From a virus: 64,000 nt of DNA. Under the pieces are notes generated by a model, which saw nothing but the letters and a program-made list of their open reading frames with translations, was not told the origin of the DNA and ran no database searches. The number at the start of each line of letters is the position of its first letter. The first letter of the stretch is position 1. Positions 4,026 through 36,613 of the stretch are shown here, piece by piece. The DNA is taken from IMG/VR virus record IMGVR_UViG_3300023184_000036. One strand, 5' to 3'. A program made the translations under genes and the position numbers.

Positions 4026-4375
4026 TTTTTTCTCCTTGCTCCGCTATTGTGCGGAACAGGACTAACTTTGTTATTAGAATCTGGTTCACGACCTTTTTCT
4101 TTTGTAATCCAATTACTTTTATAACCAAGACCTTTTAGTGCATTATTCAACATATCCATTTCTTGTGGACTATAAGCTGCTGCAAGTGGTTGATCACGGA
4201 AATGTTCATGCTCATGTGGTGCTTTGTGATGTGGATGTGCGGCAACAACTGTCATAAAGCGATAATAATCATAACCTGAATCCATATCAGGATATACCAA
4301 ACTTGGTGGCATAGTGCTAACATGCTCACCATGCGTTTTAGCTTTACCTTCAATTACAAATTCTGCGGCTCTCAT
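4022..4375 (-). CDS. Putative head/internal protein, paralog family A
   Basis: MRAAEFVIE; YDYYRFMTVVAAHP; NNKVSPVP; late promoter motif at 4381-4387. Confidence 0.6.
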   Translation of the reverse strand: MRAAEFVIEGKAKTHGEHVSTMPPSLVYPDMDSGYDYYRFMTVVAAHPHHKAPHEHEHFRDQPLAAAYSPQEMDMLNNALKGLGYKSNWITKEKGREPDSNNKVSPVPHNSGARRKK

Positions 4376-4394
4376 AAAGATATTTATGAGAAAA

Positions 4395-4985
4395 TTACTT
4401 CTTTACAGGAAGTATCCAATAATTTGCAGTTTCGTTATCTCTACTGCAATCTACACCTTCAAGAAACAATTTACTACGCTTTGCATCTGTTCTCTTAAAT
4501 GTGCATTCAAATGTTACACGTGCTTCTGTTGCACTTGGATTAATTGCAATAACAGTAACTTCACTTTCTGGAAGTTGGTCTGTTTCTACAAGACTTGCAA
4601 CAGCATGACGTAGCTTGTAACCTTGCTCAACCATTGTTTCATTAATCTTGTTTGCTTTTGCAATATTACGAACAAAATCTTGTGTAATACCAGCAGCTTC
4701 CATTGGTGGTTGATGTAGGAATGATTTTTGAACTTTTTCACCATCACGTTCAAATGTAAGAACAAACTCTGCCATATGTTGTGCTACACCTTCACTTAAA
4801 AGATGATGTCGGTCAAGCATGTTCCATGCTGCATTATCAAGGTATAATTTAATACTATTATCAGTATGTTCAACAACACTTGCTTGAACACTGCGTAAAC
4901 TATCAATTTCAATGTTTACTATATCACCAGTTACTGGTGCATTATTTGCTCTTTCTACTGATTTTAAGTAATCACGAAAATTCAT
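4395..4985 (-). CDS. Hypothetical protein (probable virion)
   Basis: 196 aa ORF with RBS, in late operon. Confidence 0.7.
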   Translation of the reverse strand: MNFRDYLKSVERANNAPVTGDIVNIEIDSLRSVQASVVEHTDNSIKLYLDNAAWNMLDRHHLLSEGVAQHMAEFVLTFERDGEKVQKSFLHQPPMEAAGITQDFVRNIAKANKINETMVEQGYKLRHAVASLVETDQLPESEVTVIAINPSATEARVTFECTFKRTDAKRSKLFLEGVDCSRDNETANYWILPVKK

Positions 4986-33005: not shown

Positions 33006-33929
33006 ATGCTTACTAGGTTTATTGCTGTTGCAGCCGCAACACTTATTAGTACTGCTGCTTTTGCAGTAGAAGTTACAGGTGCAGGTGCTACTTTCCCACA
33101 ACCAATTTATATGAAGTGGGCAGAAGGTTATAAGAAGGCTACTAGCAATGTCATTAATTATCAAGGCATTGGTAGTGGTGCAGGTATCAAGCAAATTGAA
33201 GCAAAGACAGTAAATTTTGGTGCTACAGATATTCCAGTAAAGACAGAAGACCTTGAAAAGAAAGGTCAAGTTCAATTCCCAATGATCGTTGGTGGTATTG
33301 TTCCAATTATTAACCTTAAAGATGTTGACCATCTAACATTAACAACAGACATTCTTGCAAAAATCTATATGGAAAAGATTAAACGTTGGAATGACAAGGA
33401 AATTGCAGAACTTAACCCAGGTGTAAAACTTCCTGACCTTCCAATCATCAAGATTCGCCGTGCTGATGGTAGTGGCACAACTTGGAACTTTACAAAGTTT
33501 CTTTCAGAAGCAAATGAAGACTGGAAGAAGAAGTATGGAATTGGTCAAACTGTTGAATGGGTTGGCGGTGCAATTGGAGCAAAGGGCAATGACGGTGTTG
33601 CAAACAACGTTTACCAAACAAATGGTTCAATCGGTTATGTTGAATATGCTTTTGCCAAGCAAAATGATCTTACTGTTGCTGATATGATTGGCAAGGACGG
33701 TAAGAAGGTTTCACCAGGTCTAAAAGCATTCCAGACAACTTGGCCAATGGTTGCTACAAGTTACATTGTTCTAAACAAAGAAAATGATAACAAAGAAGCA
33801 GTTCAAGCAGCAATCAAGTTCTTTGAATATGGTTATGCACATGACAAGGATGCAGAAGTACTTGACTATATTCCATTGACTGCTGCACAAAAGGCAGAAA
33901 GCAAAAAGGCTTGGTCTACAGTCAACTAA
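33006..33929 (+). CDS. pstS: Phosphate ABC transporter substrate-binding protein
   Basis: GAGATFPQPIY, YQGIGSGAG, FGATD, RADGSGTT, GAKGNDGV, IGYVE. Confidence 0.96.
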   Translation: MLTRFIAVAAATLISTAAFAVEVTGAGATFPQPIYMKWAEGYKKATSNVINYQGIGSGAGIKQIEAKTVNFGATDIPVKTEDLEKKGQVQFPMIVGGIVPIINLKDVDHLTLTTDILAKIYMEKIKRWNDKEIAELNPGVKLPDLPIIKIRRADGSGTTWNFTKFLSEANEDWKKKYGIGQTVEWVGGAIGAKGNDGVANNVYQTNGSIGYVEYAFAKQNDLTVADMIGKDGKKVSPGLKAFQTTWPMVATSYIVLNKENDNKEAVQAAIKFFEYGYAHDKDAEVLDYIPLTAAQKAESKKAWSTVN

Positions 33930-33952
33930 TTTACATAAAATTACTGTAAAAT

Positions 33953-33992
33953 ATGCCCTACCAAATTATTTTTTGTAGGGCATTATTTTTTT
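33953..33992 (+). terminator. Terminator after pstS
   Basis: ATGCCCTAC...GTAGGGCAT followed by T tract. Confidence 0.6.
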
Positions 33993-33993
33993 C

Positions 33994-34023
33994 TTGACAT
34001 TATATTATTTTCGTGTATAAATA
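33994..34023 (+). promoter_or_regulatory. Promoter of leader/attenuator (sigma70-like plus T4 late motif)
   Basis: TTGACA-16 nt-TATAAA; TATAAATA at 34016-34023. Confidence 0.7.
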
Positions 34024-34044
34024 AACCCACAACAGAGAGTGAAT

Positions 34045-34125
34045 ATGATTAACACGCCTAAACATTACGATTATATCATTTGCCGCATGCCAGAAGGTTT
34101 CTGGATTACGGGGGCGTGTGCCTAA
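34045..34125 (+). CDS. Attenuator leader peptide, 26 aa
   Basis: AGAGAG RBS; MINTPKHYDYIICRMPEGFWITGACA*; overlaps antiterminator arm. Confidence 0.7.
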   Translation: MINTPKHYDYIICRMPEGFWITGACA

Positions 34126-34152
34126 TGTGACCGCACATTAGTGTATGCACTT

Positions 34153-34185
34153 AGCCCCCGAAGCGAAAGTTTCGGGGGTTTTTTT
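34153..34185 (+). terminator. Attenuator terminator hairpin
   Basis: AGCCCCCGAAGC-GAAA-GTTTCGGGGGTT-TTTTT. Confidence 0.88.
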
Positions 34186-34440
34186 ATTTTCAGGACGGTA
34201 GCCCCTATGTATAAGGCTACCCACCGACCAGTACTTGGGCCAAATGGCTGAATAGGTGGTTTCGGCGGTGAAAAATGGGGTGGGGTGTCAAGATTTTGAC
34301 ATTTTTACCCAAAATTGCCTAAAATTTGTGCAAACTTTTTTTAATTTTCGTGCATTTTTTTCTTGACTTATTATATGGTTGTGCTATTATGCATATGTTG
34401 ATGACGACATGGTGTCGTCCTTTTTATGGAGAAAGTAACT

Positions 34441-34707
34441 ATGACTATCGTATCAAATACAGACCGTGTTCTTGAAGCCCTTAAGTCTGGTGAGTTGCTC
34501 ACCGCAAAGCAGATTTCTGCTCGTTTTGGCGTTGCCAATCCACATGCAGCTATCTCTGCAATCCGTCTCAAGGGTTATGCAGTTTATCTCAATGAGTATA
34601 AGACTGCCAAGGGTGAAGTAACAAAGAAGTATCGTCTTGGCAATCCTTCACGTGAGATCGTTGCCGCTGGTATGCGGGCTCTCATGGATGCTGGCGTTCG
34701 CATCTAA
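34441..34707 (+). CDS. Winged HTH DNA-binding protein
   Basis: LTAKQISARFGVANPHAAISAIRLKGY..YRLG; GGAG RBS; own TTGACT promoter at 34363. Confidence 0.75.
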   Translation: MTIVSNTDRVLEALKSGELLTAKQISARFGVANPHAAISAIRLKGYAVYLNEYKTAKGEVTKKYRLGNPSREIVAAGMRALMDAGVRI

Positions 34708-34772: not shown

Positions 34773-34846
34773 ATCAGTGTAGTTCAATGGTAGAACGGCG
34801 GTCTCCAAAACCGCATATCAGGGTTCGATTCCTTGCACTGGTGCCA
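34773..34846 (+). tRNA. tRNA-Trp(CCA)
   Basis: Cloverleaf, GCGGT-CTCCAAA-ACCGC, TTCGA, 3' CCA. Confidence 0.92.
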
Positions 34847-36538: not shown

Positions 36539-36613
36539 GGCTCCATCTTATAATGGCTATTATCCTTGACTGTCTATCAGGGGATAGGGGTTCGATTCTC
36601 CTTAGAGTCGCCA
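36539..36613 (+). tRNA. tRNA-Asp(GTC)
   Basis: CTTGA-CTGTCTA-TCAGG, G73, CCA; one acceptor mismatch. Confidence 0.8.

Follow-up and report, generated by a model that had tools for sequence, protein, structure and literature searches.

The window analysed here is a 64,000-nt stretch of DNA from an uncultured giant phage, whose closest viral record is a complete 338-kb genome with terminal repeats (96% identity over the region). By its tail sheath protein, it comes closest among cultured phages to the Pseudomonas giant phages of the PA5oct group (42% identity); PA5oct itself lacks an RNA polymerase gene and relies on the enzyme of its host (PMC7318152). A nucleotide search of a cultured-phage collection with positions 33900–34450 gave zero matches. 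The region of interest opens with a pstS-like gene, followed by a terminator, a short leader, a structured RNA, and the tRNA genes (Table 1). Since the terminator of the pstS-like gene marks a boundary just ahead of the leader, the leader is a separate transcription unit. ARAGORN predicted 18 tRNA genes in the window and Rfam one more (36539–36610), which gives the 19 downstream tRNAs counted in a preliminary description of this DNA that had been made from the sequence alone.

The space past pstS differs in some of the related phages. In four contigs (L019, L021, L022, and L025), the first 100 nt past pstS contain a consensus promoter followed within ~10 nt by a terminator hairpin and U-run, a pair that would yield a transcript of ~35 nt a short way ahead of the leader promoter. 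A further related phage carries a circularly permuted (two-piece) tmRNA gene between pstS and the tRNA genes (L026 3939–4317), in the locus position that the leader holds in the window.

The preliminary description had proposed a promoter, a ribosome-binding site, a 26-codon reading frame, a set of pairing segments, and a terminator, and we could confirm all of their coordinates on the sequence. The −10 hexamer of the promoter-like motif is without the usual final T of the consensus, which is why the leader promoter is absent from the list produced by a consensus scan. A pausing role is possible for the hairpin at 34090–34104, which lies within the frame and immediately 5′ of segment 2.

Table 1. 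Coordinates of features at the leader locus. Positions are those of the window, except in the last row, where they are those of the contig named.
Feature	Position	Strand	Remarks
pstS-like gene	33006–33929	+	Pfam PBP_like_2 match, E 2.6e-33
Terminator of pstS-like gene	33953–33992	+	Upstream of leader; inverted repeat 33953–33961/33975–33983, then T-run
Promoter-like motif	33994–34023	+	TTGACA 33994–33999, 16-nt spacer, TATAAATA 34016–34023
Ribosome-binding site GAGAG	34035–34039	+	5 nt ahead of ATG
Leader reading frame	34045–34125	+	26 codons plus TAA
Segment 1	34052–34058	+	Can pair with 34113–34119 (helix 1:2)
In-frame hairpin	34090–34104	+	Just before segment 2; folds under all conditions tried
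Segment 2	34109–34122	+	G-run and following bases; antiterminator 5′ strand, pairs with 34147–34160
Hairpin at top of antiterminator	34122–34141	+	Stop codon 34123–34125 in 5′ arm
Segment 3	34147–34160	+	Antiterminator 3′ strand; last eight bases are the start of the terminator stem
Intrinsic terminator	34153–34185	+	12-bp stem 34153–34180, GAAA loop, seven T at 34179–34185
Structured RNA	34191–34270	+	Would be the first element transcribed on read-through
Structured RNA, pseudoknot	34192–34194/34204–34206		
Structured RNA, helix A	34197–34203/34215–34221		
Structured RNA, helix B	34222–34231/34263–34270		
Structured RNA, hairpin	34239–34241/34246–34248		
52-residue protein gene	L023 4147–4305; L041 683–841; L057 2667–2825; L095 3042–3200; L147 170–328	− in L095 and L147	

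Relatives were collected using the pstS neighbour as bait, which gave 33 loci with the element in a subset of them, and using a pattern derived from the leader, which found further copies. Many more came from viral and metagenome contigs by way of a pattern derived from the conserved downstream RNA, which makes no use of the leader and so does not bias the set towards it. The related phage contigs contain 31 distinct leaders, which fall into four diverged clades: clade I, the window's own, including the divergent L005; the AT-rich clade II (L080, L095, L114, L122, L133, L147, and L164); clade III (L110 and L137); and the GC-richer clade IV (L120, L129, and L135).

The layout is the same throughout. 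All 31 leaders are preceded by a promoter-like motif (TTGAC-N17-TATAAA, or TATAAC in two clades) and contain an ATG frame of 24–50 codons, near the end of which lie four or five consecutive G (the G-run), complementary to the C-run in the terminator 5′ arm. The stop codon starts 8–14 nt past the G-run in every variant, and in all clades a hairpin either holds the stop or directly follows it; clade II (e.g., L080) also has a hairpin, of other sequence, at the position equivalent to 34090–34104. A C-run opens the terminator stem and a U-run follows it in 31 of 31 variants, with compensatory changes in the stem. The check proposed in the preliminary description, a search of related phages for a short reading frame and terminator with covariation, thus returned 31 leaders from four clades in which the stop geometry and the pairings are kept. 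Sequence comparison therefore gives good support to a putative ribosome-dependent attenuator at the head of a phage RNA-gene array. Its carriers are a group of uncultured giant freshwater phages, with the presumed switch conserved at the head of an array of tRNA and small-RNA genes.

Only the first few residues of the leader peptide are alike between clades; since the peptides differ beyond these, it is the act of translation, not its product, that seems to be kept. Two leaders carry in-frame indels (L005 and L149), and synonymous third-position changes are found at many codons. In the group of L019, L021, and L023, one inserted base at the stop places the frame's end two codons away, and the stop hairpin is preserved by an A-U to G-C change that compensates for it. 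The GAGAG motif and the ATG are conserved among relatives, with a variable spacer between them. In clade IV, the ATG lies 6–7 nt past the −10 motif, which is the arrangement of leaderless mRNAs. A plausible start for the leader frame can thus be proposed in every clade. When leaders were shuffled with dinucleotides preserved, an ATG frame of at least 20 codons ending at the right place appeared in 6–11% of shuffles per clade, and a frame of native length in 0.3–5.5%. The joint chance of the frame, as a product over four clades taken as independent, is <1e-4.

The full leader has a predicted folding energy of −57.3 kcal/mol (z = −4.85), and none of 200 shuffles was as good. By itself, the terminator folds with −21.4 kcal/mol and the antiterminator (34109–34160) with −29.1 kcal/mol, close to the −29.0 kcal/mol obtained by evaluating the structure drawn in the preliminary description. 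Transcripts truncated at 34160–34164, which do not yet have the 3′ arm of the terminator, fold into a three-part hairpin spanning 34109–34160, with the G-run paired to the C-run. If a 30-nt ribosome footprint is masked in such a cut transcript with the A site on any of codons 20–27, the stop included, the antiterminator is lost, whereas it remains when the footprint is masked on codons 5–17. The complete leader at equilibrium always takes the terminator form, wherever the footprint is masked, so that any switch would have to be kinetic only, as in classical attenuators. In the comparison of alternative structures that had been suggested as a check, the leader folds better than its shuffles and cut transcripts give the antiterminator, both in favour of the design; that the complete leader always gives the terminator counts against it. 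The GNRA-capped terminator with a U tract (helix 3:4) described earlier is likewise present, with its GAAA loop, and is kept in all 31 variants.

Evidence for the antiterminator (helix 2:3) also comes from comparison among the variants. The minimum-energy fold of the cut transcript pairs the terminator 5′ arm with the G-run in 26 of the 31. In the remaining five, helix 1:2 prevails (L023, L025, and L041) or the arm pairs with the 5′ untranslated region (L133 and L137), which indicates that the alternative forms are close in energy. When the whole leader is searched for the best partner of segment 3, this partner ends 2–8 nt 5′ of the stop in all nine representatives. Compared to shuffles, this partner has P values of 0–0.019 in six AT-rich representatives, and none of 1,000 shuffles matched it in L110; for the GC-rich clade, neither the segment 3 partner nor the 2:3 energy differed significantly from shuffles (P 0.1–0.4).

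Segments 2 and 3 hardly vary within the window's clade, and the covariation of helix 2:3 therefore rests on the comparison between clades, for which segments 2 and 3 were aligned by hand with the G/C runs as anchors. The first pair beyond these runs varies by lineage (C-G, U-G, or U-A) without ever losing its pairing; at the second, two clades have U-A and clade IV has G-C. As the C of this second pair is unpaired in the terminator form of clade IV, its complementarity is specific to the antiterminator. At the fourth pair, L080 and L095 are set apart by an A-U to U-G exchange. In a MAFFT alignment of clades I and II, 80% of cells are paired vs. 40–60% for slid partners, and the covariation score is 0.19 vs. 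0.05–0.10. For cross-clade counts of terminator and stop-hairpin pairs, a column-based approach was unusable because MAFFT placed the clades in different registers; it was dropped, and run-anchored tables were used. Together with the cut-transcript folds, these compensatory changes across clades uphold the antiterminator that had been claimed from the window alone.

Within the window's clade, positions 34147–34159 are nearly invariant, though unpaired in the terminator form. The exceptions in segment 3 are a C to U change at 34159 (L025, L041, and L057), a C to T change at 34150 (L144), and a one-base insertion (L165). In the lineages with the C to U change, the partners of segment 3 in segments 2 and 4 still pair with it, via a G-U wobble or a matching G to A change in segment 4. 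Helix 1:2 is found in the minimum-energy fold of the window's complete leader and is absent from folds of the window's transcripts ending before segment 4. It is kept within the window's clade, where all its changes are one-sided, and has no counterpart in the other three clades; being confined to one clade, it does not appear to belong to the general design.

The structured RNA that follows the terminator was compared in 38 distinct sequences. Of the cells in its helices, 96% are paired (slid partners, 31–50%), and 14 pairs have changed on both sides; none of 500 shuffles reached the score. An Rfam search with 34191–34270 matched no family. About 48 distinct phage sequences have this RNA at the front of tRNA/small-RNA arrays. 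In many related phages that have no leader, it stands directly after a promoter of its own, at the head of an array of tRNAs and structured RNAs (further carriers include L061, L063, L067, L072, L079, L084, L085, L087–L089, L092, L097, and L099). It is to be regarded as a separate and apparently new RNA family, with strong covariation. From its position at the start of the unit, one might guess that it keeps the polymerase going or protects the 5′ end. The put RNA of HK022 (PMC9378689) and the boxA leaders of rRNA operons, both antitermination elements that act in the nascent RNA, are likewise compact structured RNAs placed right after the promoter of a long, largely untranslated unit; the likeness drawn here is one of position.

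Prompted by the permuted tmRNA of L026, we also considered whether the leader and the downstream RNA could together be a diverged tmRNA. This reading was rejected: ARAGORN and Rfam detect no tmRNA in the window, and the partner of the would-be acceptor 3′ strand lies downstream of it instead of upstream. Several relatives have arrays of structured-RNA modules 3′ of the companion RNA (L085 7700–8130, L087, L089 7630–8040, L092 4100–4520, and L025 ~4300–4610). Each module is enclosed by conserved complementary flanks, a conserved hairpin lies between modules, and some modules have a T-arm-like motif. When these arrays were searched against Rfam at E up to 0.01, only true tRNAs matched.

The structured RNA follows the leader in all cases, and in three clades the tRNA genes come directly after it, leaving no room for a promoter. 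In L110, for example, the U-run is 8 nt from the structured RNA, which is itself 15 nt from a tRNA-Val gene; a tRNA-Trp gene lies 8 nt past the structured RNA in L041, and a tRNA-Cys gene 60 nt past it in L120. The + strand of L080 (2.6 kb with the leader and five tRNA genes) contains no promoter match of at least 10/12. In five contigs from two clades, a conserved gene for a basic protein of 52 codons is inserted between the terminator and the structured RNA (Table 1). It starts 12–19 nt past the U-run and has a strong ribosome-binding site of its own, without a promoter; a family search with the 52-residue protein gave no informative match. Because the tRNA genes and the 52-codon gene adjoin the leader unit and have no promoter, their expression would come only from the leader promoter, through the terminator.

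In the window itself, the structured RNA is followed by a palindrome, promoter-like sites at 34296 and 34363, a small winged-helix gene, and then tRNA-Trp at 34773. Since promoters and a small gene precede the first tRNA, the only certain target in the window is the structured RNA at 34191–34270, and the caution voiced in the preliminary description, that the regulated unit may be shorter than the array, is right for this genome. Some details of this stretch may be added. The palindrome (16 nt, 34286–34301) shares bases with the −35 hexamer of the site at 34296. In the 5′ untranslated region of the winged-helix gene, whose likely start is 34441 based on alignment with L005, a hairpin and U-run lie at 34400–34419, and the hairpin has compensatory changes in L005 and L052. 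Among the tRNA genes of the relatives, L080 7555–7677 matches the Rfam tRNA model over 123 nt, pointing to a tRNA gene interrupted by an insertion or intron, and is uncalled by ARAGORN.

The codon content of the frame bears on what the leader might sense. The window leader has no run of one codon, as had been stated. It was also said to sample many amino acids, including most of those served by the downstream tRNAs. The tallies are correct (16 amino-acid kinds, with 13 among the 15 served by the tRNAs), but the match to the tRNAs is at chance level (hypergeometric P for 13 or more, 0.25), and the idea of a leader built to sample what those tRNAs carry was rejected on this basis. Leaders of 24–29 residues contain 16–18 amino-acid kinds, and the 45–50-residue leaders of clade IV contain all 20. 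Compared with phage protein composition, this variety has P values from 0.003 to 0.09. The bulk of the effect is gone when the comparison is made with stop-free shuffles of the leaders' own nucleotides, leaving the variety only mildly unusual (P 0.24, 0.09, 0.03, 0.24, and 0.02–0.06); for the four clade representatives combined by Fisher's method, P is about 0.01. Amino-acid variety is thus on the high side in all clades, and weakly significant against the proper null.

We propose that the leader is a ribosome-dependent transcription attenuator gating a phage operon of RNA genes, and put the probability of this reading at about 0.65. The comparison of related phages supports its parts, their geometry and conservation, the covariation, and the need for read-through. 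We infer that translation sets the choice between terminator and antiterminator, and likewise the direction of that choice and the physiological signal. The trp/his-type layout recognised in the preliminary description agrees with the 31 variants, where frame, antiterminator, and terminator are kept across four diverged clades with compensatory changes. Host RNA polymerase would start at the promoter-like motif and make a leader of about 155 nt, the frame of which would be translated during transcription. The G-run (34109–34122) and the C-run (34154–34160) would be the base strands of the long hairpin, the C-run also being the 5′ arm of the terminator. With no ribosome on the last seven or so codons as segment 3 emerges, the long hairpin would hold the C-run and block the terminator, and polymerase would read through into the structured RNA and, in related phages, into the tRNA genes that directly follow it. 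A ribosome that keeps pace, and so stands on the last codons or the stop, would cover the G-run; the C-run would then pair with 34169–34180, and transcription would stop at the U-run.

What such a device would read out is the lag of the first ribosome behind the polymerase, and slow translation of any cause would lead to more transcription of the tRNA array. Its predicted geometry fits a report of ribosome lag whatever the cause, and the phage can probably use the switch to raise its tRNA output during slow translation. The earlier suggestion of a general sensor of charged-tRNA shortage or of anticodon nucleases may reasonably be drawn from this geometry. A more elaborate version is possible, although we hold it only tentatively: a many-amino-acid sensor of usable-tRNA shortage would switch on the array, and the structured RNA at 34191–34270 would make the polymerase resistant to termination over the many kilobases of untranslated RNA genes. 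Shortage of this kind could come from starvation, from a codon mismatch with the host, or from host defence nucleases that cut tRNA. Counting against the attenuator model, coupling of ribosome and polymerase is not universal among bacteria, and the −10 motif departs from the consensus in its last base.

Another explanation would be a fixed, leaky terminator. The leader would then be a small gene or small RNA in its own right, a constant fraction of read-through would set the ratio of leader to array, and translation would have no regulatory role. The strength of the terminator and the fact that the complete leader always folds into the terminator form agree with this, and attenuator-type leader RNAs can have functions of their own (PMC6614838). 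However, a leaky terminator leaves unexplained why a G-run complementary to the terminator 5′ arm is found 8–14 nt before the stop in four clades, why the stop is always in the 5′ arm of a long hairpin, why the frame is kept despite divergence of the peptide, and why antiterminator-specific pairs covary. We consider it unlikely for these reasons. Somewhat less likely again is a frame that senses one signal, which could be the supply or queuosine modification of tRNAs reading NAY codons (Asn, His, Tyr, and Asp), or a small molecule acting via a stalling peptide. NAY codons occupy codons 7–10 in the window, and runs of four or five are found at codons 7–11 in its clade, where codon 8 toggles between Tyr and Asn only; the chance of a run of at least four is 0.024, and of at least five 0.004. 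A ribosome stalled at this run would cover segment 1, and a ten-codon block in the GC-rich clade, from our reading of the sequences, changes mostly at synonymous sites. Yet the run is absent from L005 and the three other clades, helix 1:2, which a stall there would control, is missing in those three clades as well, and the peptide is not conserved between clades.

The last reading we weighed makes the frame incidental and has a protein, tRNA, or small ligand bind the leader RNA, in the style of a T-box, PyrR, or a riboswitch. It would account for one feature of the window's clade, where the part of the frame at 34078–34108 is conserved even at synonymous sites, which points to a constraint on the RNA. 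Against it, the frame is common to all clades and no sequence or structure upstream of the G-run is. In the Rfam search, leader families stayed far from their gathering thresholds (His_leader, 20 bits vs. 49; PyrR, 19.6 vs. 54; trpB motif, 21.1 vs. 59), and T-box was not among the matches even at E up to 10. A ligand-binding leader appears improbable, and is the least favoured of the explanations considered here.

The current view of phage tRNA genes is that they offset codon usage and make good the loss of host tRNAs to defence nucleases (PMC10264068, PMC11464382, PMC11555353). Literature searches on phage attenuators, PA5oct transcription, and phage tRNAs gave no description of the regulation of tRNA arrays or of an attenuator of this type. 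If the array is indeed preceded by a ribosome-dependent attenuator, tRNA supply would be tied by feedback to the demand of translation. Leader-peptide attenuation, a control of amino-acid synthesis in bacteria, would thereby reach the translation machinery itself and also phages. If the many-amino-acid sensor were also true, the sensor and the structured RNA would together be an inducible counter-defence circuit made only of RNA and a throw-away peptide. The family lends itself to testing, given its simple geometry and four natural sequence variants of one design.

Among known systems, the proposed attenuator has most of its parts in common with the trp, his, leu, thr, ilv, and pheA leaders of enterobacterial amino-acid operons: a promoter, a short leader, an intrinsic terminator, and an antiterminator built with the terminator's 5′ arm. 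In leaders of the trp/his type, the stop is likewise placed so that a terminating ribosome covers segment 2. In contrast to them, the phage leader has no run of codons for one amino acid, helix 1:2 occurs in one clade only, and its antiterminator, a long hairpin in three parts, encloses the stop codon. Trp/his-type leaders regulate biosynthetic enzymes, whereas the phage leader precedes tRNA and other RNA genes. Antibiotic-induced resistance leaders control single bacterial resistance genes and need defined stalling peptides. They likewise couple the progress of a ribosome on a short frame to RNA refolding without a specific amino-acid signal, but the phage peptide varies freely between clades, and the target would be a phage RNA-gene array. 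In the pyrBI attenuator of E. coli, what is sensed is how far the leading ribosome is from the polymerase, and a close ribosome disrupts the terminator, giving read-through. The sign would be opposite in the phage leader, where a close ribosome would disrupt the antiterminator and so bring about termination.
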